A DNA stretch of 51,722 nucleotides from a virus (IMGVR_UViG_2579778650_000023), one strand, 5' to 3'. Shown: positions 1 to 18,048, counted from the first letter of the stretch. Program-made: numbers and translations. The notes: generated from the letters alone by a model not told the origin.

Positions 1-306
1 CAGAACGGTTCAGATAACCTGATACTTATAAATCGTAAAAAAAACCTTTTTTATCAGAAGATAAGAGATAGAGAATGATTGAACTGTTAAGAATTTAGTT
101 AAAATATAAACTATCAAAGTGCATAATTTTACTTTTTTGGTGACCCAGCTCGGACCTTTGATTCAATCTGGCATAGATATTGGGAAGAGATGAAAAAACC
201 GGAAATCTCAAAAAGTGCGAGGAACTAAACCAAGTGTGCTTACAGTACAAAGACAACTATGATAACCTTTGCTAAGTCAGGTTTTACACTATGGAACAGT
301 TAATAT

Positions 307-1128: not shown

Positions 1129-1603
1129 CACTTCTACATAGAAATTTCATTAATAAACAAGAAATTAGCTTTCTTGAGGACAACTTTACCTAAAGCTGAA
1201 AAGTGCCAATTAGCAAACTTTCATCCCATAAGCTATGATATAGCACTCACTTTATTGATAAATACCGAGGTATTCATGAAAGGTCAGGTCGATATCGAAC
1301 TCCAAAGATTGATACGGGCGCGGTATAACACCGCGGTAGAAAATTGGAGTGAATGGAAATGGTTAGAAATCGGGCATGGCGTCGTCATCATATATCTCGG
1401 TTAAAATCTAAGAGAAAAACATATCGAATTGTGTTGGCTAAAACTGAAAAAGTTGTAGGGAAAATTTACTGCCCCCCTTGTGCTTGTTCTTGTTATTTTT
1501 GTGGTAATCAAAGAATTCATCACGGAGTGAACATTCAAGAGCAACGAGCTTTGCTGCGTTTTACTGATTGACTTATAAAATATTAATCTTTTCGATAATA
1601 AAA

Positions 1604-1622
1604 GGCTCCAATCCTTGGAGCC
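1604..1622 (-). terminator. Rho-independent terminator downstream of the 1587-aa gene
   Basis: Perfect inverted repeat GGCTCCAA-tcc-TTGGAGCC; on the minus strand the hairpin is followed by TTTTATTATCG; lies between convergent genes. Confidence 0.6.
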
Positions 1623-1665
1623 TAAATTGGAAAAACTCTCATTAAAACTATTATTTTCAACTACA

Positions 1666-4600
1666 TCACAGAATATTTTCCCGTGACATATAACCAACAA
1701 CCGATCCTTTCTCTACCAAAAAATCTAATATTACTAAGACCTCTTCTTTCAACTGTTTGGTTCGTCTAATTCTCTCACGCTCAGTGTTGATATACCGCCT
1801 AACCAAACATTCCAAATAATAAACAGTATCATTTTCCAATTTATTTTCCCATAACTTTTTATTAACCGACAATATTCCTGAAAGCCAGGTTATACCTTGA
1901 TTAAGATAGCAACTGGCAATGTTATTCAATGATTTGGCAAGAGAATATACAGTTGAAGGGCAATGACCCATAGTCCTAGATACATCGCAAAAGAATTGAC
2001 TATTGTTATCTTTAAATGTGTGCCAACCATTTGAATTTTCTTTCCATGGAGATTCAGCAAAAAGGTAACTTTTTATAATTTTATCTACATACCAATACCT
2101 ATCTCCATCCTTGCACAAAGTAACCACTTTATCAAAAAACAAATCCCAAACCTTCCAAAATTTGGTGTAAGTATTTAATCTATCTTCGACGAGAATAAAT
2201 TTTTTAAATAACTCTGAAATAGGCTCTGAACCGTTGAAACCTTCAAGAAAAGGTTTTATATAATCAGGAATATCGCTCACGGGCGCATGAAGCGTAAAGT
2301 AGGCAAATCTTTCCAAGAAAGACTGCCGAAGAGCGTAATCAACTCTATCTTCTCGAACACTTGACAATAGGCTTGTAGAAAATCTTTTAACAATTAAGGA
2401 AACCAATTGCTTATGTTCAATATTGACAGTATCAACTGGAATTAATTGGAAAGCCGTGTTCAAAATATGCAGATCAACTTTATCGATACCTCCCAAATCA
2501 TCTATAGATATTTTATTATCGATGACATTTGATATGCAATGCTTATAGTTATTTAAAAACACCTTATTAATATTTATTTTTTTAATGTCATAGTCTGCTT
2601 GACGATAACTTTCATGAATGATTTTTCTTGAAAGGATTACATATTTTGGCTTTAAAATCAAAAAACCAAACAATAGAGACTGCATATCATCAAAATAGTA
2701 TAGCCATAATTTATGAATCACCATACTAGGAAATACTGAGTAGCGCCCACTTGCCATTCCAATAGAGTGGTCATTAAACAGTGTCAAAAGTAATATTGTT
2801 TTTATAGTCTCCCTTTCGACTGGATAATTATGATAAATCACAGGTAAGGCTGAAATTGCCGAGGTTGTTCCATCTAGCACCTGATAATTATAGCCTTCCT
2901 TCAACGGAAGTTTAGAATACGCTAGAACAATATCTTTACAGTATTCTCTCTCTTCATTATTCAGCTGATTAAAATTCTCTAATAGTAATATAGAACAAAC
3001 GTCTGCTGGTATATTACTGTTTAATAGTCGGAAATCTTCATCCTCCTCCTCATTAAGCTTGTTTATTATTTCTTTGGTCTCTTGTATCGCAATTTGCGGA
3101 TTGTCCTCATACATTCCATAATTCTTATAACGTTCATCCTTTTCTCTTTTATAGCTTGCCCATAGCTTCAGCGTCATATACTTCATATGCTCGGAATTTT
3201 TCTTTATTGCTTCCTCACTATATTGCTTTAGTTTTGGGTCAATCTCAGGATTGAATGATATCTCAATCCCTTCATCTTTCTCCTTAGTAGTTATATTCAT
3301 CTTTCGCCGATCCATTCTTGCCAAGCAGAGCCTCCACGTCTTATCGGCTTCAGTTTCTTGAGCTTCATCTGGAAGCTGATTATAGTATTTGTCGAAAATA
3401 TCCCATAGCACTTGTTGCCTTTCTATGGCATCTTTCTCCGTTACATTTTCACTTCTGAAAATTTGATAATGCAAGGCAAGATTTTCAAGATGAGTATTTC
3501 TATGCACATCATCGCAAGCTTTAATTCTATCTTCTTCGTGCAAAGAGTTTCTGTAATCTGCACCGCCAAAGCCATCCCTGAGGGAGATTAATGAACTTTT
3601 ATGTGTTCTGTCTAGAACCATTCGATTCATATCAAAATGGAAGAAATCCTTTGTTTGGAATAGTACTTTAGCTACATTGAATGTCTTCTCAGGGAATGCA
3701 AGTACAATACTAGTAACTACTGCGGAGATAGAAGCTGACTTGGTATTTCTCAACAAAAAGAGAAGCCAACTTTCCAACACTTTCGAGTCTGCATTTTTAA
3801 AATTCTCAAGAAAAATTTTTTCCAATGCCATATGAATTGATGAAAGTAAGTAGGTAGAGACCTGTGTTCCTCGATATGAGCACCACAGACGATTGCATAT
3901 ATATTGCTTTATAAACTTTCCTTCTTCAATAAAGACATCGACTTCTTCAATTTCGTTTTTAGCAAAGCGGGAGTGGGCAAAACATATCGTTGTCTTGTTC
4001 GTAAAATCAAGAATAAAGTCTATTGTTTTTTTGAACTGTGATTGTAGTAACCAATATATAGGAGTCTGATATGGACTTTCTGGATAATAGTCATGATGAG
4101 ACCTAAATAGACCGAACTCATCTTCAATATCCATATGGTGATAACGTTCGCCTTTTTCTTTAAGTGGCCGATACCAGAACAGATCTGCCAATTGTAGAAC
4201 ATATTCCGGGAGAGATACCCAAACCGGATGTGAATCTAAGTCAGTAAGGATTAAGGTCATAAGATCGAAATATGGGGTACCGTGCTCGTTCCACTTATTT
4301 TTTAGAATCTTAACTAAAATCTCTTCCATTTCAGGTTTAATCATGGCCGCCCCATGAAGAATCGTATGCAGAATATTTTTCTCATTATCCCTTCCGGATA
4401 AATAGACATCCTCATCTATAGTCCATTGATAATATTTTAGGGCTATCAAACTAGATAATCGAGTCGTTTCACCCACTTTGTTTCTTTGATTCCACTCTTG
4501 AATCACTGGAAGTATAAAATTAATATTTCTGAACCCAATTTCATCTAAATTTTCATGGATAAATTGGATCACACTCTGCCAACCAGTTCCCTTAGGCTTA

Positions 4601-6429
4601 GTAAGAACATATTTAATGGAAAGTAGATCTGAATTACTTACACCTAACTGTTTAAGCAGATCGTAATCAACGTCCTTGCAAGCAAGCCTCAATAAGAAAG
4701 TAAGTCTTTTTAAAAGATTCTGGTCACTACTAAGTAAATATCGTTTAAAGTAATTAAAAAATATGCCTGAATTGTCGGAAAGAAGGACAGCTACCCATAA
4801 CTCGTCTTTCCAAAATTTTGATATTCCTTCTCCACAGACTATTTCTGCGATAAAAGGCTTTATGGACTGGTCATCTAAAAGTAATCGTTCAGATATCCAA
4901 TTCCGAAAACTACGGCGAACAGGAAGTGATTCTCCTATCTTTTCGAAGAACTCGTTATTGTTCGCTTTACGGATATAATCGACGGAAATTTTCTTTTCTA
5001 ATGCCCATTCCTCATATATATCATGTGTAATGAAGTAACCAGCAGCTTCATAGCCGACAATTCCGTCTTTAACTAACGCATCTAAAATTCCAGTATCACA
5101 TGTCGGAGAGACAAAAAATTGGCCCTCACTAGCCCGCTGAAAAGCAGTCGCTAAGAAACACTGCTCCCGAGAAGGTTTATTTTTGACGACAATCTTATTC
5201 CAGAGCTTTTCTTTGAAGCTCGCATAATCGATGCTTTCACCGGTATAGAACCTCAGATATTCACTTAGATAAAATGGATTTTTGATTAGTTCTAATAATC
5301 GAACATCTTGAGGAAGGCTAAATCCATTATTATCAGATAACTCTATTAGCTCGTCGCGTTCAAGGTTCTTTATTACTAAGTTTCCAGGAGTTATCTTATA
5401 AATATCTATGAAAGCATAGTTCAGATCTGCCAAGTAGTTGTTACGGGTTGTGAAAATAACCTGCCATTTATCCTTTATTAAAACAGTCAGGAATTCTTTA
5501 AAAGGAACGATATTGGTCAATTCTAAAAGCTTTTCAGCAGAATCTACGACTATGACTTTACGTAATTCGTCTTGATGAGCATTAGAGAAATCGGCTAAGC
5601 CATGCGCACCGAATAGCTCATTAATGCTGTCTTTTTTAAACTCACTAGCCTTAAAGACATAGAAAGGAGTGCATTGTTTTTCAGCTTCATAAATTTTTTT
5701 GATAACTGCTGTTTTTCCAACCCCACCTTCTCCGCTGACGATGACAATTTTTTTCTGAACTAGATTCTCATGTAGAAGTTCAATGCAATGTCGTCTGTCA
5801 ATTTCAATACTTCTGTCTTTGAACTCTATATTGGTTTGAATTTCATATAAAACATTTTCTGTGTGCTTGCGCTTTTCTTCTAATAAATCAAAGATGCTTT
5901 CATTAAGGGAGAAGAAATGTTTTGCAATCTTTTCATTCTCAACTATTACAAACGGTGATTCAAAAAAACTAGCAACTCTCCATACTATTTCGATACCCGA
6001 CTCATATGCTTTCTGATCAACTTCAATTTTTATTTTGGGATCGTTACTATTTCCGACAGTTTCAAAATAATTATCAGCGTTCTTATCGTCTTCAGGCTCA
6101 TGAGACTTTCTCCCCTGCCCCCACTCTTGATTAGTATAGAAAATGATTTTACTTAATCCTGGATAAGCCTTTTTGCTTTTCCCAATCATTTCTATAAGAT
6201 CAGCTTTGTTATCCGACAATTTTGTGTCATAGAATTTAGATTGCCAACCGATAAGTTCATTATCTTTGGTTATTGGATTAGTTTCGATACCAGATTGATT
6301 CTTATATCTAAATATACCTGCGGGTATTTTGAATTCTTGACAGAACAATAAGTAGCAAAACCACTCAAAATTATCTTGAGGATTCTCATTAAATTTAGCT
6401 TTAAAGTTATCCCAGTTTGGTTTGACCAT
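1666..6429 (-). CDS. Large STAND-type P-loop NTPase (1587 aa): N-terminal domain of about 215 aa, NTPase core, about 1200-aa C-terminal region; Avs/AVAST-like antiviral candidate
   Basis: Walker A GEGGVGKT, Walker B-like VIVVDSAEK, STAND-like sensor motif VIFTTRNN; very long C-terminal region with no recognisable catalytic motif; AT-rich; AGGGG Shine-Dalgarno about 9 nt upstream of the ATG at 6429. Confidence 0.75.
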   Translation of the reverse strand: MVKPNWDNFKAKFNENPQDNFEWFCYLLFCQEFKIPAGIFRYKNQSGIETNPITKDNELIGWQSKFYDTKLSDNKADLIEMIGKSKKAYPGLSKIIFYTNQEWGQGRKSHEPEDDKNADNYFETVGNSNDPKIKIEVDQKAYESGIEIVWRVASFFESPFVIVENEKIAKHFFSLNESIFDLLEEKRKHTENVLYEIQTNIEFKDRSIEIDRRHCIELLHENLVQKKIVIVSGEGGVGKTAVIKKIYEAEKQCTPFYVFKASEFKKDSINELFGAHGLADFSNAHQDELRKVIVVDSAEKLLELTNIVPFKEFLTVLIKDKWQVIFTTRNNYLADLNYAFIDIYKITPGNLVIKNLERDELIELSDNNGFSLPQDVRLLELIKNPFYLSEYLRFYTGESIDYASFKEKLWNKIVVKNKPSREQCFLATAFQRASEGQFFVSPTCDTGILDALVKDGIVGYEAAGYFITHDIYEEWALEKKISVDYIRKANNNEFFEKIGESLPVRRSFRNWISERLLLDDQSIKPFIAEIVCGEGISKFWKDELWVAVLLSDNSGIFFNYFKRYLLSSDQNLLKRLTFLLRLACKDVDYDLLKQLGVSNSDLLSIKYVLTKPKGTGWQSVIQFIHENLDEIGFRNINFILPVIQEWNQRNKVGETTRLSSLIALKYYQWTIDEDVYLSGRDNEKNILHTILHGAAMIKPEMEEILVKILKNKWNEHGTPYFDLMTLILTDLDSHPVWVSLPEYVLQLADLFWYRPLKEKGERYHHMDIEDEFGLFRSHHDYYPESPYQTPIYWLLQSQFKKTIDFILDFTNKTTICFAHSRFAKNEIEEVDVFIEEGKFIKQYICNRLWCSYRGTQVSTYLLSSIHMALEKIFLENFKNADSKVLESWLLFLLRNTKSASISAVVTSIVLAFPEKTFNVAKVLFQTKDFFHFDMNRMVLDRTHKSSLISLRDGFGGADYRNSLHEEDRIKACDDVHRNTHLENLALHYQIFRSENVTEKDAIERQQVLWDIFDKYYNQLPDEAQETEADKTWRLCLARMDRRKMNITTKEKDEGIEISFNPEIDPKLKQYSEEAIKKNSEHMKYMTLKLWASYKREKDERYKNYGMYEDNPQIAIQETKEIINKLNEEEDEDFRLLNSNIPADVCSILLLENFNQLNNEEREYCKDIVLAYSKLPLKEGYNYQVLDGTTSAISALPVIYHNYPVERETIKTILLLTLFNDHSIGMASGRYSVFPSMVIHKLWLYYFDDMQSLLFGFLILKPKYVILSRKIIHESYRQADYDIKKININKVFLNNYKHCISNVIDNKISIDDLGGIDKVDLHILNTAFQLIPVDTVNIEHKQLVSLIVKRFSTSLLSSVREDRVDYALRQSFLERFAYFTLHAPVSDIPDYIKPFLEGFNGSEPISELFKKFILVEDRLNTYTKFWKVWDLFFDKVVTLCKDGDRYWYVDKIIKSYLFAESPWKENSNGWHTFKDNNSQFFCDVSRTMGHCPSTVYSLAKSLNNIASCYLNQGITWLSGILSVNKKLWENKLENDTVYYLECLVRRYINTERERIRRTKQLKEEVLVILDFLVEKGSVVGYMSRENIL

Positions 6430-6503
6430 TTAATTATTCCCCTATTTTTTGTAAATAACTGCCCCTACACAGAGAAATGCACCCTCGATATCGTACTCAG
6501 CAA

Positions 6504-6929
6504 CTATCTTCTTTCTCCATCAGAGCGCTCACGGTCAATCTTTGTCAGCTGCGCATTGAGTTGATGTCCTGTCATTCCATGTTTGTATGCATTGTATTGC
6601 CAGATCACAAACTGTTGTTTGTACCTCCGGTTCTCTTCCTTAAGCTCTTCGATTTCGCTTTCAAGATTCACAATCCTAGCGGCTGCAATGTTCAAACTAG
6701 CTGGACGCGGATTTTTGGGGCCACGGCCTTTAAGCGCCTCTTTCTTTGTTTGATAGGCAGTCACTATTGCCCCATGTGCATTAAGGGACTGTCTTGACGG
6801 CAACTTTCCAACCAATGGTTCTGCCGCCTCACAAATTACTGACCAGGACAGTTTTGGTTCCTGCCATCCTCGAATTAGATTCACGATGGCGTTAATGTCT
6901 CTATTGTCCAGATGCTTAGCCAAGGCCAC
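6504..6929 (-). CDS. Small protein (141 aa), fourth gene of the recombinase operon; coiled-coil-like C-terminus (ESEIEELKEENRRYKQ)
   Basis: ORF start overlaps the stop of the upstream recombinase gene (translational coupling); function unknown. Confidence 0.5.
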   Translation of the reverse strand: MALAKHLDNRDINAIVNLIRGWQEPKLSWSVICEAAEPLVGKLPSRQSLNAHGAIVTAYQTKKEALKGRGPKNPRPASLNIAAARIVNLESEIEELKEENRRYKQQFVIWQYNAYKHGMTGHQLNAQLTKIDRERSDGERR

Positions 6930-8949
6930 CTCCTAACAAAGTTGTCAAATCATCTAACATCACAGCTTCTTCACTTTCTTTGCCTTTTTGCTTGATGGCC
7001 GCAATAGACGTCTTTGCGACAACACGGCGAAGCTGGCTGAAATCATTGCCCCGGAGCTTAATCTGGGCACCATTTTCAATGTCTGGATTCTCTAAAATAG
7101 CGACTAACTCACGAAGCCGGGTGACAGTTTTCTTGTGGTATTGATACCAGCGATCAGCCCCCATCTCGCCGCGTTCTACCGCTGCATCAGCAATACAAAA
7201 CATTCGTTCCGACTTCACCAAACGTTTCTTAATTCGATCCAATATTTCTGTATCCTCGCCTTTGATACAAACCTGCTCAGTACAATTGACGCAATCTCGG
7301 AACTTCTCGCAAGGGCCCATGGTGTAATCATGCACGCAGTAGCCATACTCCGTCACATGGACTGCGGCATGATCTAACGTATTGAACTCTTGAATAGTCA
7401 CAGGAAGGTGCTTAGCCACATCTCCAGCAGGCCCAAATAGACCTTTTGAGGGATCGAGGCGTTCAGACATGCCAACCAACTCATATTCAGTCATGTGGTT
7501 GTAAGCTCGATTCTGTTTCATATCTGCCCGACCAGACCACTTGGCAATTTCCAAGTTTGAGAGCCCACCACGCTGAGCTATGGTGTTAAGTAGGTGCCGA
7601 GCTTGGTGCGAGGTTAATTTAACCCGTTCACCGTTTTCAGCATGGTAATTATAGCGATCAAAGATACTGGCATGTTTTCCATTCAAAGTCTCCCGAGGCG
7701 TCAGATCATTATTAAAGAAGTTATTGGTTGGTTTATACAATTCAATCGGTATACATCGGCGATTCCCGTGGAACTGATTTACATTAAGTGCAAACAAAGC
7801 ATTGCTGTACTTAATTCCCTTGTCTTTATCAAACCACGGAAAACCATCAGGCAATCGCGCCATAGCATGGCGCCACAGGCTTTTTAGTGTGTGCGAACCA
7901 TCTTCTTGAGCTAACCCTCGATTAAAGAGAGAAGAACGACATTGTTTTTTGGATTTACAAGCAAGACCGAGAGCCATACAAGACTGTTCCATTGTCAACG
8001 GCTCATCATCAGCGACATCAGGACAGTTAGCATGGCGGTAAAATTTATCCGGGTGTATCTCAATCCACTTGGCCAGCTGTCGAGCATTCTCAGATAACAT
8101 TTTGGTTCTAGCGATAGCTGTTTTAGCAACGCCAACCATTACAGTGGGTATCCATTTAATGCCCCCTTCATAGCCTTTACCTGCAAAGAAACGCCAACCA
8201 TAGCGTTCTATATCTTCGCTATCGGTTTCAAACACCTCACAATCTGCAGGAAGTGCTAACACTTCAGAAATGCGCGAAGGAGCAGACATCAGCATAGCAA
8301 ACACCGATGTTGTAAATATGTCTCTTTCATCCATTGGATCGTTTGCAAAAATTTCCGCAAGCGCGTTGAGGGCAATATCACTCGGTAGTTTCTTTTCCCT
8401 ATTTTTTTTAGCCTCTCTGCCTGTTTTGTTTTTGTCCTCTGCACGCCTAATGGGATTAACCCAATTTTGCACAGCACTTGATACAAGTCGATTTTCAACG
8501 ACAAACTTAGCCAGCCGCTCAATCTCTCGGCCACAATGATATGCAGCACCATCAGAGTAGTGCTGCCTTGCCAATTCAGATGCTTCATCCAGTACTGAAA
8601 TCGACAGACCATCAATATTTGCATTTCCATTTACTTGAATTAAAGCCGCCTCAATCGCACGGAGGGCCTTACTTTCATTCTTTGTCCCTGTGGGATGATG
8701 TCCCTGCTGGTAACGAAAATAGGCTTTGGCGAAATCAATGAACGCAGGGTCTTGTACCTCTCCCTGCATAGGTGTTCGCGTAATAATGCCTAGCTTGGCA
8801 AACACTGTTATGTTTGGCCAAACAGGAGCTTCCCAATTCAGATCGGAACCGAATACAATCAATTGTACTCGGCACTTGGATATGAATACTCCAAGGTTTT
8901 GTGCTGCTGTCAGCGTAGCCTTTGGTTTAAACTGGAAAATCTCAGCCAT
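6916..8949 (-). CDS. Tyrosine recombinase-family protein (third of trio, about 677 aa)
   Basis: C-terminal HQARHLL ... NRAYNHMTEYEL motifs resemble the H-x-x-R and catalytic Tyr of integrase-family proteins; start chosen at ATG 8949 with GGGAG Shine-Dalgarno, overlapping the stop of the upstream gene (alternative start 8994). Confidence 0.6.
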   Translation of the reverse strand: MAEIFQFKPKATLTAAQNLGVFISKCRVQLIVFGSDLNWEAPVWPNITVFAKLGIITRTPMQGEVQDPAFIDFAKAYFRYQQGHHPTGTKNESKALRAIEAALIQVNGNANIDGLSISVLDEASELARQHYSDGAAYHCGREIERLAKFVVENRLVSSAVQNWVNPIRRAEDKNKTGREAKKNREKKLPSDIALNALAEIFANDPMDERDIFTTSVFAMLMSAPSRISEVLALPADCEVFETDSEDIERYGWRFFAGKGYEGGIKWIPTVMVGVAKTAIARTKMLSENARQLAKWIEIHPDKFYRHANCPDVADDEPLTMEQSCMALGLACKSKKQCRSSLFNRGLAQEDGSHTLKSLWRHAMARLPDGFPWFDKDKGIKYSNALFALNVNQFHGNRRCIPIELYKPTNNFFNNDLTPRETLNGKHASIFDRYNYHAENGERVKLTSHQARHLLNTIAQRGGLSNLEIAKWSGRADMKQNRAYNHMTEYELVGMSERLDPSKGLFGPAGDVAKHLPVTIQEFNTLDHAAVHVTEYGYCVHDYTMGPCEKFRDCVNCTEQVCIKGEDTEILDRIKKRLVKSERMFCIADAAVERGEMGADRWYQYHKKTVTRLRELVAILENPDIENGAQIKLRGNDFSQLRRVVAKTSIAAIKQKGKESEEAVMLDDLTTLLGGGLG

Positions 8950-10504
8950 TGGCGATTGCTCCCTGTGGACTAAGCTCTTCACGACGTTTTGCACAACGCA
9001 TGATCACATCTGCCACCGCGATAATGCTGCGATCAAGTATGGCAGCAATCTGGATATCGCCGGTTATCTCTTTCACCCGTTCACGCTCGTTGAGCAGCCC
9101 CTGATAGACATCCTCATGGGGGCCATCCAGCCAAGGCTGGAAATGCATGCAGGTGTAGCAAGGAATAGGAACATTGGCACCACAAAAACCATGCTCCCCA
9201 CAAGTACCTACACCATGGCCTATCTCGGTCCTAATGCGACTGGCAGGGTCGTTACCTCGATGCGCGCCCCTCTCTGAATCGACAAGTACCCCGACAAAGG
9301 CCTGGGCGTATGGTGCTAGTTGGAAGCCAACCGCCTCATCAAGCTTTTTCACATGTTCGGGAATGTTCTTGATGTAAACGCCGGCGTTTTGGGTATCCGT
9401 ATGGTCAAGTAGTTCCGCAATCACCAATTCGCCAAATCCTTCCTTGGCAGCTCGTGTGCCCGTGGTATAGCGAAAACGACGAGCATTGATATGTAATAGC
9501 TCACCAGTACGTTCTGACCGGATATCAGATTTTTCTATGATGTACTGGAGTGTGTTGGTTATCTTTGCTGCGGGAATGTGGAGTTTGTCGGTAGCAAACA
9601 GTTGGCGGAATTCATAAGGAGACTGGACGGTAGCTAACACATCAAGATCTGGAAACAGAGGGATTTGCTGTCGGTCATCTTCCTGCAATTCAAACCCCAG
9701 ACGATTCTCAACCATTGCAATTGCATTCTTTGCCTGAGTGTTCAGAATTACCCATAGTTCTGGTGATATCGCAAAGAGCTTGAAGTTTATTCGAAAAGAA
9801 CTGCTGCGCTGCTTGGCTCGCGGCACATTCAAAACATAGAATGGCTCTCCCTTTCCATTTTTACCGCAAAGCACATCGACTGCATGAAGCAGCGAGATCT
9901 GGATGGGTCGTCGTCCTGTATGACTGATGCTAAGTGCCAAAGCCAACTCCGCTATGGTAATTAAGCTCTTTTCATAAGCCCGAACAGCCCCCTCGTTAAA
10001 CGCTGTCAGCTCATTATCCGTCAGAGGCCCTTCTTGAGGATCCTGACGCTTAACCGCATCTCCCTTACGATTACCCTTCAGCCTCCAGCCATCCAACAAA
10101 CTGATCACATCTTTGCTGATACCGGGATAACCAAGCTGGTGCCAAGTTCGAAGAAAGCCACGTATAGTTGCCAGATACCATTCCGTCGCAGGCAATAGTC
10201 TCGCCCGATAATTAATCAATACCGTATCAGTAATTTCTCTCGCATGAGTCTCTCGCAGCATGTGCTGAAACCGCATAATAATGTTCAGAGTATGAGGAGC
10301 AGATTGAGTAGAAGCATAAAATGCTAGCGTGCGTAGGCAGCCATTGAGCCCCTCACCTGACAAGTAATGGTGAATATCTACAAGAGTGGCGTGGGTATTT
10401 TTATCCAATATCCACGATGTATCATATAAGTGAAAGAAGTAGCCATTAGCCCTAGCACAGATTCGCTCGGACACTAATGCCGGTAGGAACTTACTCGTCA
10501 TCAT
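8942..10504 (-). CDS. Tyrosine recombinase-family protein (second of trio, 520 aa)
   Basis: Integrase-like motifs (HTGRRP..., RFRYTTGTRAAK, ...GVYIK); start overlaps the stop of the first recombinase gene. Confidence 0.6.
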   Translation of the reverse strand: MMTSKFLPALVSERICARANGYFFHLYDTSWILDKNTHATLVDIHHYLSGEGLNGCLRTLAFYASTQSAPHTLNIIMRFQHMLRETHAREITDTVLINYRARLLPATEWYLATIRGFLRTWHQLGYPGISKDVISLLDGWRLKGNRKGDAVKRQDPQEGPLTDNELTAFNEGAVRAYEKSLITIAELALALSISHTGRRPIQISLLHAVDVLCGKNGKGEPFYVLNVPRAKQRSSSFRINFKLFAISPELWVILNTQAKNAIAMVENRLGFELQEDDRQQIPLFPDLDVLATVQSPYEFRQLFATDKLHIPAAKITNTLQYIIEKSDIRSERTGELLHINARRFRYTTGTRAAKEGFGELVIAELLDHTDTQNAGVYIKNIPEHVKKLDEAVGFQLAPYAQAFVGVLVDSERGAHRGNDPASRIRTEIGHGVGTCGEHGFCGANVPIPCYTCMHFQPWLDGPHEDVYQGLLNERERVKEITGDIQIAAILDRSIIAVADVIMRCAKRREELSPQGAIANG

Positions 10505-11753
10505 TCTTCATGTCCTTTGGCAAGCGAGTGCCATTACCTTCCTGCAATGCCAAAGCGGCCTCAAACCCTTTTTGCTGAATGAAACGCTTGTTGTAAGTCG
10601 CTGCAGTTCCCGAACCATCTCTCCAACCCATTAAGTAAGAACGGAGCTGCTCTTGGCGTTCCTCGCTGACTTGCTCATTCATGGCATCCATTCTTTCTGA
10701 AAACTTTCGATTCCATGTATGGCGGAACGAATGCCCTGTCGCTGCATACAATTGTGGTGATACAGCCCTGACCACGGAAAAGATTTTATGATATCCCCCT
10801 TTAGAGATAGGGTTTCCAACTGTTGGCCCTAGCTTATAAGTGACAAAGAGGTAGTCATTTTTCTTTGCATTTCGGACTTTCCGGCGATCTTGGATGATAT
10901 AACTATGTAGTTCTTGAACTAGGGATTCAGCCAATGGCAAGAGCCGGTCTCTCGTTTTAGCATGGGGCTGATTGGTTCTAGAATCAGCTAGCTCATCTGC
11001 TCGCCTAAATATACGGATCCTGTTAGTACTAAAATCAATATCTTGTATTCTGATGTTTAACAATTCCCCACCTCGAATACCAAGATAAAACAGAAGTAAG
11101 ATCATCAGCCGATTGCGACGCTGAACATCTATTGAGAAAGGATTTAAATCTGATCCCGGCTTGATAACTTCAAATAGCGTATCCAATTGCACATCATTCA
11201 ATGACCTGTCTTGCCATTCACTGTTTCTGCGCTTTTTCGACGGTCGACGTATCTTTATGTGCTGCAACATTTCATTGATCTGTTCGACAACGCCCGGTTC
11301 TGCCGTCTTTAAAATATGCATTGCATACCAACCTAAATATTTGGCATATGTTGTCAGCCGGGAATGCAATGTTCCGTTATCAACAGTATCGCTACTCGCA
11401 TCTTCCAACCAAGGTGTAGAAGAAGCAACTAACAGCTTCTTTCCCTGCTTGCGCTGAGCAAAATCCCGCAGATCGTCCAGTTCGTAAGGTTTGAAGAAAT
11501 TTTTGGTCAAAAATCGCTGTTCTAGGTCAATGCCACGATTATCTAAGAAGCGTAGCAGCACAACAAGGTTGCTAGCTGCTGCTAGCATAGTTGAAAAAGC
11601 ATCCCCTCTGTTGCGGATTTGGGTTGTTAAAAAAAGAGTCGGGTAATACACGGGAAGGCAAGAAGAACGATCCACCACCATGCAGTATCGCTCGCCACTG
11701 TCCATGACAAATGTTGTAACCTTGTAGTTATCCTTCATGTGCCCATACCCCAT
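10491..11753 (-). CDS. Tyrosine recombinase/integrase (first of trio, about 415-420 aa)
   Basis: LGIRGGELLNIRIQDID (box I Arg) and GHSFRHTW (H-x-x-R) motifs, C-terminal Tyr region; true start may be the internal Met at 11738. Confidence 0.7.
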   Translation of the reverse strand: MGYGHMKDNYKVTTFVMDSGERYCMVVDRSSCLPVYYPTLFLTTQIRNRGDAFSTMLAAASNLVVLLRFLDNRGIDLEQRFLTKNFFKPYELDDLRDFAQRKQGKKLLVASSTPWLEDASSDTVDNGTLHSRLTTYAKYLGWYAMHILKTAEPGVVEQINEMLQHIKIRRPSKKRRNSEWQDRSLNDVQLDTLFEVIKPGSDLNPFSIDVQRRNRLMILLLFYLGIRGGELLNIRIQDIDFSTNRIRIFRRADELADSRTNQPHAKTRDRLLPLAESLVQELHSYIIQDRRKVRNAKKNDYLFVTYKLGPTVGNPISKGGYHKIFSVVRAVSPQLYAATGHSFRHTWNRKFSERMDAMNEQVSEERQEQLRSYLMGWRDGSGTAATYNKRFIQQKGFEAALALQEGNGTRLPKDMKNDDE

Positions 11754-11828
11754 ACACTTTACATAATTGCAAGGTACACAGTATGTTAGGAAGATATCAA
11801 TTACGATTTGACACTTTTGAGACGCGGC

Positions 11829-11857
11829 AAATAAAAAGCCCCTGTATTAACAGGGGC
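11829..11857 (-). terminator. ssb rho-independent terminator
   Basis: Hairpin GCCCCTG-ttaata-CAGGGGC followed by TTTTTATTT on the minus strand, immediately downstream of ssb. Confidence 0.75.
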
Positions 11858-11896
11858 CTGATAGATAATTAATTACATAAACGTCTTAGGTAAATC

Positions 11897-12433
11897 CTAG
11901 AACGGAATGTCATCATCAAAGTCCATCGGCGGCTCGTTAGACGGCGCTGCCGGAGCGGACTGCTGCGGGCGAGACTGCGCGCCGCCGCTGAACTGATTGC
12001 CACCCTGCGGCTGCTGAGGCTGACCCCAACCGCCCTGCGGCTGACCACCACCGATATTACCACCTGCCGGAGCGCCACCACCCTGACGACCACCCAGCAT
12101 CTGCATGGTGCCGCCAACGTTCACCACGACTTCTGTGGTGTAGCGATCCTGGCCGGATTGATCGGTCCATTTGCGGGTACGCAGCTGACCTTCGATATAA
12201 ACCTGAGAACCTTTACGCAGATATTCGCTGGCCACTTCTGCCAGTTTGCCGAACAGCACAACGCGGTGCCATTCAGTCTGTTCTTTCATCTCGCCGGTCG
12301 CTTTATCACGCCAGGATTCGGAAGTAGCCAGCGTAATGTTGGCAACTGCGCCACCATTTGGCATGTAGCGTACTTCCGGGTCCTGACCCAGATTACCAAC
12401 GAGAATAACCTTGTTTACGCCTCTGCTGGCCAT
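11897..12433 (-). CDS. ssb: Single-stranded DNA-binding protein SSB (178 aa)
   Basis: Translation [39 protein letters not shown]... with Gly/Gln-rich tail and C-terminal DFDDDIPF, characteristic of enterobacterial SSB; the true start is internal to the longer six-frame ORF. Confidence 0.95.
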
Positions 12434-12583
12434 GTTCGTGTCTCCTGAAAAAAATCGTTCTGAATAAGTGTAAACGCGCGATTGTACCATTACCAATAGC
12501 GCTTTTACTATGTTGTGACCTCGGTTCCGGGAAACAAACCTGGCCAGACATTGTTACACAACACTCCGGATAATGCATTCCAA

Positions 12584-12603
12584 TACTGTATATTCATTCA
12601 GGT
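12584..12603. promoter_or_regulatory. LexA (SOS) box in the divergent ssb-uvrA control region
   Basis: TACTGTATATTCATTCAGGT (CTGT-N8 with a degenerate right half) between the divergent ssb and uvrA starts; matches the known uvrA operator. Confidence 0.8.
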
Positions 12604-12686
12604 CAATTTGTGTCATAATTAACCGTTTGTGATCGCCGGTAGCACCATGCCACCGGGCAAAAAAGCGTTTAATCCGGGAAAGGTGA

Positions 12687-15509
12687 ATGGATAAGATCGA
12701 AGTTCGGGGCGCCCGCACCCATAATCTCAAAAACATCAACCTCGTTATCCCCCGCGACAAGCTCATTGTCGTGACCGGGCTTTCGGGTTCTGGCAAATCC
12801 TCGCTCGCTTTCGACACCTTATATGCCGAAGGGCAGCGCCGTTACGTTGAATCCCTTTCCGCCTACGCGCGGCAGTTTCTGTCACTGATGGAAAAGCCGG
12901 ACGTCGATCATATTGAGGGGCTTTCTCCTGCCATCTCAATTGAGCAGAAATCGACGTCTCATAACCCGCGTTCTACGGTGGGGACAATCACCGAAATCCA
13001 CGACTATTTGCGTTTGTTGTTCGCCCGCGTCGGCGAACCGCGCTGTCCGGACCACGACGTCCCGCTGGCGGCGCAAACCGTCAGCCAGATGGTGGATAAC
13101 GTGCTGTCGCAGCCGGAAGGCAAGCGTCTGATGCTACTCGCGCCAATCATTAAAGAGCGCAAAGGCGAACACACCAAAACGCTGGAGAACCTGGCAAGCC
13201 AGGGTTACATCCGTGCTCGTATTGATGGCGAAGTCTGCGATCTTTCCGATCCGCCGAAACTGGAACTGCAAAAGAAACACACTATTGAAGTGGTGGTTGA
13301 TCGCTTCAAGGTGCGTGACGATCTTACCCAACGTCTTGCGGAGTCGTTTGAAACCGCGCTGGAGCTTTCCGGTGGTACAGCGGTAGTGGCGGATATGGAC
13401 GACCCGAAAGCGGAAGAGCTGCTGTTCTCCGCCAACTTCGCCTGCCCAATTTGCGGCTACAGTATGCGTGAACTGGAGCCGCGACTGTTTTCGTTTAACA
13501 ACCCGGCAGGTGCCTGCCCAACCTGTGACGGCCTTGGCGTACAGCAATATTTCGATCCTGACCGCGTGATCCAAAACCCCGAGCTGTCACTGGCTGGCGG
13601 TGCGATCCGTGGCTGGGATCGCCGCAACTTCTATTACTTCCAGATGCTGAAATCGCTGGCAGATCACTATAAGTTCGACGTCGAAGCGCCGTGGGGCAGC
13701 CTGAGCGCGAACGTGCATAAAGTGGTGTTGTACGGTTCTGGCAAAGAAAACATTGAATTCAAATACATGAACGATCGTGGCGATACCTCCATCCGTCGTC
13801 ATCCGTTCGAAGGCGTGCTGCACAATATGGAGCGCCGTTATAAAGAGACAGAATCCAGTGCGGTACGTGAAGAATTAGCCAAGTTTATCAGCAATCGCCC
13901 ATGCGCCAGCTGCGAAGGGACGCGTCTGCGTCGGGAAGCGCGCCACGTTTATGTCGAGAATACGCCGCTGCCTGCTATCTCCGACATGAGCATCGGTCAT
14001 GCGATGGAATTCTTCAACAATCTCAAACTAGCTGGTCAGCGGGCGAAGATTGCAGAAAAAATCCTTAAAGAGATCGGCGATCGTCTGAAATTCCTCGTTA
14101 ACGTCGGCCTGAATTACCTGACACTTTCCCGCTCGGCAGAAACACTTTCCGGCGGTGAAGCCCAGCGTATCCGTCTGGCGAGCCAGATTGGTGCGGGCCT
14201 GGTTGGCGTTATGTATGTACTGGACGAGCCGTCTATCGGCCTGCACCAGCGCGATAACGAGCGCCTGTTGGGTACGCTTATCCATCTGCGCGATCTCGGT
14301 AATACCGTGATTGTGGTGGAGCATGACGAAGACGCAATTCGCGCCGCTGACCATGTGATCGATATCGGTCCTGGTGCGGGTGTTCACGGCGGTGAAGTGG
14401 TCGCGGAAGGTCCACTGGAAGCGATTATGGCGGTGCCGGAGTCGTTAACCGGACAGTACATGAGCGGTAAACGCAAGATTGAAGTGCCGAAGAAACGCGT
14501 TCCGGCAAATCCGGAAAAAGTGCTGAAGCTGACAGGCGCACGCGGCAACAACCTGAAGGACGTGACGCTCACGCTGCCAGTCGGTCTGTTTACCTGCATC
14601 ACAGGGGTTTCAGGTTCCGGTAAATCGACGCTGATTAACGACACACTGTTCCCGATTGCCCAACGCCAGTTGAATGGTGCGACCATCGCCGAACCGGCAC
14701 CGTATCGCGATATTCAGGGGCTGGAGCATTTCGATAAAGTGATCGATATCGACCAAAGCCCAATTGGTCGTACTCCACGTTCTAACCCGGCGACCTATAC
14801 CGGCGTGTTTACGCCTGTGCGCGAACTGTTTGCGGGCGTACCGGAATCCCGTGCGCGTGGTTATACGCCAGGACGTTTCAGCTTTAACGTCCGTGGCGGG
14901 CGCTGCGAAGCCTGTCAGGGCGACGGTGTGATCAAAGTAGAGATGCACTTCCTGCCGGATATCTACGTGCCGTGCGATCAGTGTAAAGGTAAACGCTATA
15001 ACCGTGAAACGCTGGAAATTAAGTACAAAGGCAAAACCATCCACGAAGTGCTGGATATGACCATCGAAGAGGCGCGTGAGTTCTTTGATGCCGTACCTGC
15101 ACTGGCGCGTAAGCTGCAAACGTTGATGGACGTTGGCCTGACGTACATTCGCCTGGGGCAGTCCGCAACCACACTTTCTGGTGGTGAAGCCCAGCGCGTG
15201 AAGCTGGCGCGTGAGCTGTCAAAACGCGGCACCGGGCAGACGCTGTATATTCTCGACGAGCCGACCACCGGTCTGCACTTCGCCGATATTCAGCAACTGC
15301 TCGACGTACTGCATAAACTGCGCGATCAGGGCAACACCATTGTGGTGATTGAGCACAATCTCGACGTGATCAAAACCGCTGACTGGATTGTCGACCTGGG
15401 ACCAGAAGGCGGCAGTGGCGGCGGCGAAATCCTCGTCTCCGGTACGCCAGAAACCGTCGCGGAGTGCGAAGCATCACACACGGCACGCTTCCTCAAGCCG
15501 ATGCTGTAA
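12687..15509 (+). CDS. uvrA: Excinuclease ABC subunit A (940 aa)
   Basis: [19 protein letters not shown]..., two ABC ATPase modules ([18 protein letters not shown]; LSGGEAQR signatures), zinc-finger Cys clusters. Confidence 0.97.
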
Positions 15510-15514
15510 TCGTT

Positions 15515-15545
15515 AAGGCCGCTTTCTGAGCGGCCTTTTCCTTTC
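15515..15545. terminator. Bidirectional rho-independent terminator between convergent uvrA and yjbR
   Basis: AAGGCCGC-tttctga-GCGGCCTT followed by TTCCTTT. Confidence 0.7.
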
Positions 15546-15900
15546 AGAGTTGTACCAGCAATTTACGCTTTTCTTCCGGTAGTAAATTCACTGCCTGCTG
15601 ATAAGACGCATCCACCAGATAATAGATTTGCGAATCCGGCAGCGAACCGTCGAGATACACGGTGCTCCAGTGCGCTTTATTCAGATGGCGGCTAGGACGC
15701 ACATCGCTGTGCTGCTGACGTAGCAGCTCCGCCAGCTCCGGGCTGGTTTTCAGCGAAACAGCTGGGCGATTTTCTACTTCTTTCACCATCGCAAACAGTA
15801 CATCTTCCACTTTGATCTGCGTCGCTTTCCAGTCGTTATGCACGCTCTGTTCTGCGCCTGGTTTTGCCATGCAATATTGTAGCAACTCCGAAATGGTCAT
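15544..15900 (-). CDS. yjbR: YjbR family protein (118 aa)
   Basis: Translation MTISELLQYCMAKPGAEQSVHNDWKATQIKV... and conserved position next to uvrA. Confidence 0.85.
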   Translation of the reverse strand: MTISELLQYCMAKPGAEQSVHNDWKATQIKVEDVLFAMVKEVENRPAVSLKTSPELAELLRQQHSDVRPSRHLNKAHWSTVYLDGSLPDSQIYYLVDASYQQAVNLLPEEKRKLLVQL

Positions 15901-15903
15901 TTT

Positions 15904-16320
15904 TTACTCCCCTTGTAGTGTCGCGATGATGCGACGCGATCCGCCGTGGATGCGATGTTCCCCCAGCCAGATGCCTTGCCAGGTGCCGGTCTGAATACGC
16001 CCTTTATGTACCGGCAATACAAGCGATGTTCCCAGCATTGAGGATTTGATATGAGAAGGCATATCGTCTGCTCCCTCATAGTCATGCTCATAATTTCCGT
16101 TGTCGGGAACGGTGCGGAGGAAAAAACGCTCCATGTCGTGGCGTACGGTGGGATCGCAGTTCTCATTAAGTGTCAGAGAGGCGGAGGTATGTTGCAGCAA
16201 CAGATGCAGTAAGCCGATGTTAACGCGCGGCATATCAGCCAGCTGATTCAGAATTTCATCCGTTACCAGATGAAACCCACGAGATTTGGCGCTAAGCGTG
16301 AGCGTCTTTTGATACCACAT
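15904..16320 (-). CDS. yjbQ: YjbQ/UPF0047 family protein (138 aa)
   Basis: Translation [23 protein letters not shown]...; conserved gene order. Confidence 0.85.
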
Positions 16321-16390
16321 GTGCTGCTCCTTGATAAAACTCTCTTAATCAGTTTGCAGCAAGACAGCGAAAGGATAAAGGTGTGATTAA

Positions 16391-16425
16391 AAAAACAGCA
16401 TTCGGGAGAGCGTCACGCTCTCCCG
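16391..16425 (-). terminator. Putative terminator downstream of aphA
   Basis: Palindrome CGGGAGAGCG-tca-CGCTCTCCCG with a T7 run a few nt downstream on the minus strand. Confidence 0.5.
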
Positions 16426-16430
16426 CTCTG

Positions 16431-17348
<918 letters not shown>

Positions 17349-17544
17349 TTAATTTTACGTTTATTATGATGAATCCTCGGCAAATGAGCGAAATTTGATA
17401 GAACATTTATCTGCTGTACGATTTAATGAACTTAATGATACAGCATTACAAAAACAATCGAAGTTTATAAAGATGATTTCTGATTGACCAGCCCCCTACC
17501 CTACAATGGTGATTAATTTTATTACTCGCGATGGAGATGATGAT

Positions 17545-18048
17545 ATGAATATATCATATGTGAATAGCAACAAAACGACATCTTTACCTGTTGAGCTAGA
17601 TGCACTAAATAATAAAGATATCTCTTATGCCAAAGATTTTTCTTATGCCAAAGATTTCTTTTTATACATAGAAACACAGTTAAAAATTGCAAAAGATTTT
17701 TGTAGACCTGGAGAAGAAGTATCAAGTTCTATTGCAAGTAAAGTTTTTCACGCATTTATTGATTTAGTTAACAAAATCAGGGGTAAGAAAGACTTTATGT
17801 ATATTTGCACGCTTTGCTGTTTTGCCGAGGAGGTTAAAGGTGATTATTCTCATTACAGGACCTTTTTATTTGATATTGGTAATCAATATAAGGTTAAACT
17901 TACACAAAGCGGAAAAAAAGAGCTCTCTTTAACTTTAGAATTTAACGATACTATAATTGAATCTCAGAAAGTCACAGGCAATAAGGCAAAGCATATTCTT
18001 GAGGATATAGAAAAATTCTATCGTAACAAACCCGATACTTATTATTAA
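17545..18048 (+). CDS. AT-rich hypothetical protein at the yjbS position between aphA and tyrB (about 167 aa)
   Basis: ORF on the opposite strand to its neighbours; GGAG Shine-Dalgarno before ATG 17545 (the six-frame ORF starts at 17506); AT-rich with an upstream AT-rich region; contains an in-frame 18-bp tandem duplication. Confidence 0.55.
   Translation: MNISYVNSNKTTSLPVELDALNNKDISYAKDFSYAKDFFLYIETQLKIAKDFCRPGEEVSSSIASKVFHAFIDLVNKIRGKKDFMYICTLCCFAEEVKGDYSHYRTFLFDIGNQYKVKLTQSGKKELSLTLEFNDTIIESQKVTGNKAKHILEDIEKFYRNKPDTYY
17623..17658 (+). repeat. In-frame 18-bp tandem direct repeat (2 copies, 17/18 identical) inside the hypothetical ORF
   Basis: tcttatgccaaagatttt / tcttatgccaaagatttc, encoding SYAKDF twice. 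Confidence 0.9.

Follow-up and report, generated by a model that had tools for sequence, protein, structure and literature searches.

A very probably functional Avs4 immune receptor carried by a GInt island at the 3' end of ssb in Escherichia coli

The stretch of DNA analysed here, referred to as the window, comprises the 51,722 nucleotides of IMGVR_UViG_2579778650_000023, and it corresponds to an Escherichia coli chromosome with the gene order yjcB, an island, and then ssb-uvrA-yjbR-yjbQ-aphA-tyrB-alr and onwards. Within the island, an open reading frame (ORF) of 1587 amino acids (aa), called from ATG to stop on the minus strand at 1666..6429, is very probably a functional allele of avs4, encoding a single-protein anti-phage immune receptor which rides as cargo on a GInt island targeting ssb. 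The predicted protein is assigned to Avs4 (AVAST type 4) itself, and not merely to the broader group of Avs-like proteins. The family, its trigger, structure and effector, the carrier element and the insertion hotspot have all been published, so the system as such is already known; what interest remains lies in a modest possibility that the minority allele found in the window differs in its portal range.

The assignment to Avs4 is carried by profile and structure matches which run along the whole protein. The NCBIfam equivalog NF041815 ('AVAST type 4 anti-phage nuclease Avs4') scored 2058.9 bits against a cutoff of 1500, with residues 5-1587 aligned to positions 1-1579 of the 1579 in the model, and the PADLOC Avs4 model scored 2345.4 bits over residues 1-1587 and model positions 1-1570 of 1570. 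None of the other Avs models in PADLOC and NCBIfam matched, the Avs4 model being the only one to do so in PADLOC. A PDB sequence search returned a single entry, chain A of 8DGF ('ATP-binding protein Avs4'), which belongs to a structure entitled 'Avs4 bound to phage PhiV-1 portal'. The window protein aligns to it from 1-1587 to 1-1587 with 96.28% identity, 59 substitutions and 0 insertions or deletions, the 8DGF sequence having been reconstructed from two alignments before the substitutions were counted. EcAvs4, the protein in 8DGF, is thus a gapless counterpart of 1587 aa from the same species, which shares Walker A, Walker B and the TTR motif as well as E22, E49, Q63 and K65. RefSeq already names the same gene avs4.

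A frame of 4.7 kb which stays open in DNA of 35% GC cannot be a product of chance, and for this reason the ORF is regarded as real. Its GC content is 34.9%, compared with 44-48% in the four upstream genes of the recombinase operon (the gin operon) and 51% in the flanking core genome and elsewhere in the window. Between the stop of the small, fourth gene in that operon and the avs4 start lie 74 nt, and both genes are on the same strand. The first residues of GEGGVGKT, VIVVDSAEK and VIFTTRNN are aa 233, 292 and 324, respectively. An earlier note, made from the sequence alone, had described this 1587-aa ORF as AT-rich, directly downstream of and co-oriented with the recombinase operon, and as the cargo of a recombinase-trio mobile element; these descriptions are borne out, the three motifs stand where it had placed them, and the gene does ride on a three-recombinase GInt island. 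Its remark on a long C-terminal part without recognisable motif agrees with Pfam, which is blank in the ~1100 aa that follow the NTPase module. The central inference of that note, an antiviral sensor of the Avs-type STAND class, proved correct in view of the full-length Avs4 models and 8DGF, the profile search against defence families which it had proposed having matched Avs4 end to end in NCBIfam and PADLOC. As regards expression, no good match to a sigma-70 promoter was found in the 74-nt gap before avs4. The cargo of GInts is transcribed by read-through (Bardaji 2017, PMC5385486), and transcription of avs4 is probably due, at least partly, to read-through from the gin operon.

By homology with EcAvs4, the C-terminal sensor would bind the phage portal protein directly during infection, after which the ATP-bound STAND module would drive tetramerisation. 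The tetramer would bring four N-terminal nuclease domains together and so activate them, and the ensuing indiscriminate cleavage of DNA would kill the infected cell before phage release, in what would amount to abortive infection. The gene itself would move between chromosomes and conjugative plasmids along with the GInt island. The mechanistic details on EcAvs4 are drawn from later papers citing Gao et al. 2022 (Science 377:eabm4096); according to these, Avs4 senses the portal, tetramerises and activates its N-terminal nuclease, and the N-terminal nucleases of SeAvs3, EcAvs4 and SeAvs7 alike are switched on by tetramerisation. SeAvs3 and the other nuclease-bearing Avs proteins (Avs1-3, Avs7) have in common with the window protein the succession of effector, STAND NTPase and sensor, and tetramerise on a phage structural protein. 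The protein sensed differs, being the large terminase for Avs1-3 and the portal for Avs4.

Some points weigh against the reading of the ORF as a functional Avs4. Portal binding, oligomerisation, nuclease activity and phage protection would all be properties transferred by homology, at 96% identity. Moreover, 43 of the 59 substitutions relative to 8DGF fall in the sensor region. Finally, Pfam alone fails to place the protein, since the matches over the NTPase all remain under the gathering score (nSTAND1 21.7 against a threshold of 27.1, NB-ARC 21.1 against 23.5, nSTAND3 18.3 against 27.2) and the nuclease domain is matched by no model.

The substitutions in the sensor could also be taken to mean that the window encodes a working Avs4, but in the form of a minority allele whose portal range is shifted with respect to the characterised EcAvs4. 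Two classes of avs4 allele do coexist in E. coli, one comprising 12 records that share 99% identity or more with the window, the other 362 records at ~97.1%. The window protein belongs to the rarer class, whereas the common one (e.g. WP_000240574.1 in locus L005) is only 14 positions away from 8DGF. If the range were indeed shifted, E. coli would offer a natural allelic series for mapping the determinants of receptor specificity. However, the 59 substitutions, split 7, 9 and 43 between effector, NTPase and sensor, correspond to a nearly flat density (3.3, 3.4 and 3.9 per 100 aa, respectively). The ratio of non-synonymous to synonymous divergence (dN/dS) is 0.21 for the whole gene when calculated against the common E. 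coli allele, and its value in the sensor (0.20) is not above those in the effector (0.30) or the NTPase (0.23). Because the density is flat and the dN/dS of the sensor is no higher, there is no sign of diversifying selection on the sensor. Furthermore, Avs sensors are described in the literature as recognising folds through extended interfaces and not short motifs, and a divergence of ~4% should be tolerated. A shift in portal range is consequently held to be unlikely, and the window allele appears to be under purifying selection.

Disrupted copies of avs4 occur elsewhere, one with an IS1 insertion (H50) and others with split annotation (H49 and plasmid H10/H53), which might suggest that the window, too, holds a decaying or inactive copy hitch-hiking on the island. 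Such a reading is very improbable, given that the window copy has an uninterrupted frame of 1587 codons, identical in length to the reference, with intact Walker A, Walker B, TTR and nuclease residues. The overall dN/dS of 0.21 and the presence of an essentially identical gene copy in another record likewise speak against an inactive gene.

In a functional Avs4, residues 1-215 would provide the nuclease effector, and in the window they show 7 differences from the solved EcAvs4 N-terminus. When this domain was aligned with 50 homologues (46-73% identity), E22, E49 and K65 were invariant and Q63 was present in at least 90%. An AlphaFold2 model derived from the homologue alignment, with a mean pLDDT of 81, has the core order alpha-beta-beta-alpha-beta, and in it Q63-x-K65 ends a long strand (58-65). 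Comparison of folds listed LlaBIII (9.8), CdiA-CT EC869 (8.6), AF1548 (8.4), FokI (8.2), AspBHI (8.0), N.BspD6I (7.8) and MspJI (7.6), with Can2, Card1, Shedu SduA and Cap4 lower down. The N-terminal domain thus has a PD-(D/E)xK restriction-endonuclease-like nuclease fold with conserved E22/E49/Q63-x-K65. The corresponding domain of EcAvs4 has reportedly been called 'Mrr-like' (Gao et al. 2022), a description with which the fold result is consistent.

The earlier note had proposed that the domain may be a new effector type, a claim made because it has no sequence-recognisable motif, and for nothing more. Taken alone, residues 1-215 are indeed matched by no domain model of Pfam, PHROG or NCBIfam, the PDB sequence search yields 8DGF only, and Foldseek finds nothing significant besides 8DGF. 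Nevertheless, a new effector is scarcely credible and has already been refuted by the 7 differences from EcAvs4 in 215 residues and by the PD-(D/E)xK fold; the structure prediction and structural search which the note itself had suggested led to a known nuclease. As a calibration of what can be read from raw sequence, the Avs layout was correctly recognised and the part on the new effector was wrong. Pfam alone leaves both the nuclease domain and the NTPase unassigned, and therefore a search of NCBIfam, PADLOC or PDB is needed before a domain is called new.

The NTPase motifs of the predicted Avs4 comprise Walker A (G233-T240), the Walker B region (V292-K300) and the TTR sensor-1 within V324-N331. 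All three are the same as in 8DGF save for V325I, with the Walker A lysine, the Walker B acidic residues and the sensor-1 arginine intact. In the Pfam scan of the whole protein no match lay outside residues 180-362; judged by its sequence, the protein is of the STAND class, yet a member of none of the Pfam families nSTAND1, NB-ARC and nSTAND3. The reading as a regulatory ATPase of the STAND or AAA+ type outside defence, an outcome which the earlier note had named as counting against its own inference, can be practically dismissed as already refuted, since the weak Pfam matches that would favour it (Sigma54_activat, RsgA_GTPase and AAA_22) span the P-loop region only and are all below cutoff, while the full-length matches to the Avs4 equivalog and 8DGF are decisive.

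The three-recombinase element which carries avs4 is a GInt island, inserted at the last codons of ssb, a site which is hotspot #39. GInts are composed of a ginABCD operon, cargo starting from after ginD, a short AT-rich 3' end and imperfect direct repeats (Bardaji 2017, PMC5385486), and they often insert at the 3' end of ssb without altering its product (PMC5385486). They have been listed among defence-carrying elements and shown at E. coli hotspot #39, in a figure with AVAST in its legend (Hochhauser 2023, PMC10121019); Hochhauser et al. assigned the elements at this hotspot to GInts by sequence homology of GinA/B/C (PMC10121019), and in a later publication hotspot 39 is equated with the yjcB-ssb site. 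The island in the window, ~11.9 kb in length and made up of the ginABCD operon, cargo and an AT-rich end, resembles GInts in having three tyrosine-recombinase genes and a small fourth gene, with overlapping frames, co-oriented at one island end. Cargo follows just after ginD, at the 74 nt mentioned above, and the far end is AT-rich (32.7% GC in the distal 306 bp). Further points of likeness are the imperfect direct repeats at the junctions and the insertion at the 3' end of ssb with the SSB protein unchanged. The resemblance is one of architecture and target site. A search for repeats within the island gave short chance-level matches only.

Gamma-Mobile-Trio (GMT) islands are comparable in that they, too, are three-gene mobility modules with defence cargo in Gammaproteobacteria. 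Assignment of the element to this group was rejected, as its sole link was a GmtY match of 14.2 bits against a cutoff of 340 and the GmtY/GmtZ/GmtX set was not found.

The limits of the GInt island were determined by comparison with the empty site of K-12 MG1655, homology to which runs up to window position 8 and starts again at 11892. Of the empty site, 12 bp (AAATCAGAACGG) are common to both junction alignments, with AGAACGG as the exact shared core. The stop of ssb is at 11897, and in the filled site SSB still ends in DDDIPF, its TGA stop being replaced by a TAG supplied by the element; in its restored, island-free form the end of ssb would read ..CCGTTCTGA. The strong hairpin terminator of the element (11836-11859) comes just after the ssb stop. 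GInts excise as a circular intermediate, for which all four gin genes are required; that the window element may do so is suggested, indirectly, by the occurrence of both empty and filled ssb sites in the population and by nearly identical copies on the chromosome and two plasmids of strain EC0430. Near 4001 and 15914, the plasmid copy L003 (pEC0430-1) has junction sequences equal to those in the window. Read as its reverse complement, the att core gives the Pro-Phe-stop end of ssb, that is, the universally conserved C-terminal tip of SSB. Targeting of this conserved tip would explain the presence of the element behind plasmid ssb genes as well.

The ORFs of the gin operon (420, 520, 692 and 141 aa) overlap by 14, 53 (8 from the RefSeq start) and 14 nt, the overlap of ginD and ginC amounting to ~8-14 nt depending on the start. 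The ginC-like protein is 'hypothetical' in RefSeq in most E. coli genomes, and its homologues, which NCBI calls 'integrase', come from many Gammaproteobacteria. The integrase signals in it are weak, with E values of 0.006 for PHROG 1 and 0.99 for Pfam Phage_integrase, both at approximately residues 444-515, and neither BLASTP of GinC against GinB nor a PDB sequence search gave anything significant. Across 20 homologues (65-93% identity), R241, K273/K280, R466, W486 and Y498 are invariant, and H463 nearly so. GinC is assigned as a recombinase because of the weak profile matches combined with these conserved residues of catalytic type (R..K..HxxR..W..Y). In both position and context R241, found in SAPSRISEVLAL, corresponds to the first catalytic arginine of tyrosine recombinases. 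In keeping this residue (R-x-x-E-x-x-x-L), the protein is unlike the GinC of Pseudomonas, which is reported to be without the first catalytic arginine (PMC5385486). The ginD-like protein had no family match besides coiled-coil noise.

Apart from avs4, the cargo includes an AbiGi-family gene, also present in the other E. coli variant of the island. PHROG 13416, which its product matches, is a family of unknown function, and the NCBIfam AbiGI equivalog scored 47.7 bits, below the cutoff of 300. No AbiGii-sized ORF or AbiGii family match was found at 1129-1665, and the 537 bp which separate the AbiGi-family gene from avs4 contain nothing beyond small ORFs of 76 and 72 aa, neither of them matching a family. 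The gene is on these grounds classed as an orphan, lacking the second gene of the two-gene AbiG system. The idea that it is an obligate partner of Avs4 was rejected, as no AbiGi neighbour is present at 3 loci from other bacteria where the Avs4 N-terminal domain has relatives; these loci carry truncated or split genes and are weak evidence against a general AbiGi-Avs4 partnership. The features of the island are collected in Table 1.

Table 1. Features of the avs4-bearing GInt island, with coordinates in the window
Feature	Coordinates	Strand	Details
att core AGAACGG, distal copy	2..8	.	Contains the original end of ssb, now displaced (CCGTTCTG[A]); first letters of the window lie at this junction
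Short AT-rich 3' end of the island	9..306	.	GC of window 1-306 = 32.7%; third part of the tripartite GInt structure
Second cargo gene, AbiGi-family, 273 aa	307..1128	+	Convergent with avs4; Pfam AbiGi E 6.4e-26; PADLOC AbiGi E 3.5e-45; PHROG 13416 E 1.3e-97
Terminator-like hairpin	1603..1623	-	43 nt 3' of the avs4 stop; 9-bp stem with 5 GC pairs, T-rich tail
avs4, AVAST type 4 anti-phage STAND NTPase-nuclease (predicted)	1666..6429	-	1587 aa; NCBIfam, PADLOC, PDB 8DGF_A, RefSeq name
Avs4 residues ~481-1587, putative C-terminal sensor region	1669..4989	-	Collinear with 8DGF_A 481-1587, 43 substitutions; no Pfam domain
Avs4 residues ~216-480, STAND NTPase module (limits approximate)	4990..5784	-	Motifs; sub-threshold nSTAND1/NB-ARC/nSTAND3 over 212-362
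Avs4 residues 1-215, predicted N-terminal PD-(D/E)xK (presumably Mrr-like) nuclease effector and linker helices	5785..6429	-	
ginD-like small gene, fourth of the gin operon, 139 aa from the RefSeq start	6504..6923	-	ORF from GTG 6929 = 141 aa; position and size fit GinD
ginC-like divergent tyrosine recombinase, 677 aa from the RefSeq start	6916..8949	-	ORF 692 aa; weak integrase signals
ginB-like tyrosine recombinase, 520 aa	8942..10504	-	NCBIfam NF041502 integrase_1 660.6 bits vs cutoff 350; PHROG integrase families
ginA-like tyrosine recombinase, 415 aa from the RefSeq start	10491..11738	-	ORF to 11753 (420 aa); Pfam Phage_integrase E 9.8e-15; PHROG 1 E 1.2e-20
Strong terminator-like hairpin inside the element, between ssb and ginA	11836..11859	-	10-bp stem with 6 GC pairs, tail TTTATTT
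att core AGAACGG, ssb-proximal copy	11899..11905	.	Overlaps the last ssb codons (..CCG TTC TAG, minus strand)

On a broader scale, avs4 occurs in 359 of the 5426 complete genomes of E. coli, with 25 of the matches on plasmids, and the gin operon in 380 complete E. coli genomes. In PLSDB the whole element is carried by 32 plasmids, most of them conjugative and originating from Escherichia, Salmonella, Klebsiella and Citrobacter, and a copy of avs4 which is ~100% identical at the DNA level is located on plasmid NZ_CP141737.1. Strain EC0430 has three nearly identical copies of the element, one chromosomal and one on each of two plasmids; on one of these plasmids avs4 is annotated only as several hypothetical proteins. 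In L003 (pEC0430-1, 4001-15914) and L004 (the ETEC1702 plasmid, 4001-17282) the element lies directly behind the plasmid ssb, in the conjugative leading region, between ssb and DUF905, parB-like, psiB and psiA genes, and its junction sequences in the two plasmids match those of the window.

The two E. coli variants of the island, represented by the window and L005, are mosaic, with a break close to where ginC and ginD meet. Identity between them is 96-98% in the AbiGi-family gene, avs4 and ginD (synonymous divergence, dS, 0.06-0.10) and only 80-92% in ginC, ginB and ginA, with dS of ~0.57-0.60 for ginC and ginA. From the position of this break it follows that a module of cargo and ginD was swapped between diverged gin backbones, or the reverse.

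Related GInts with a gin operon ~83% identical occupy the yjcB-ssb site in two further loci, L007 (5462-18823) and L008 (838-19600), where they carry other defence cargo. One of them holds DRT3 (drt3a/drt3b) and Hachiman (HamA and a helicase), and the other an anti-phage dGTPase, two response regulators accompanying a protein of histidine-kinase size, and a set of queuosine/deazaguanine-like genes. The gin operon of L007 is followed on its other side by a type I restriction-modification cluster that includes DUF262 genes and is possibly a second element in tandem. In a metagenome contig (L010, 8001-12850), three ORFs of 259, 367 and 933 aa follow one another, the first of which encodes a relative of the Avs4 N-terminal domain; together they may represent a frameshifted Avs4-like gene. 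This cluster is located between two serine recombinases, together with genes for an EcoRI-type methylase, GmrSD-N, HNH, Shedu SduA_C and PLD.

Outside the island, the window has a patch of 35% GC between aphA and tyrB (the yjbS region), with an ORF of 180 aa at 17506-18048 on the plus strand. In strain E8 the same patch contains an IS3-family element, and only a yjbS of 67 aa is annotated there.

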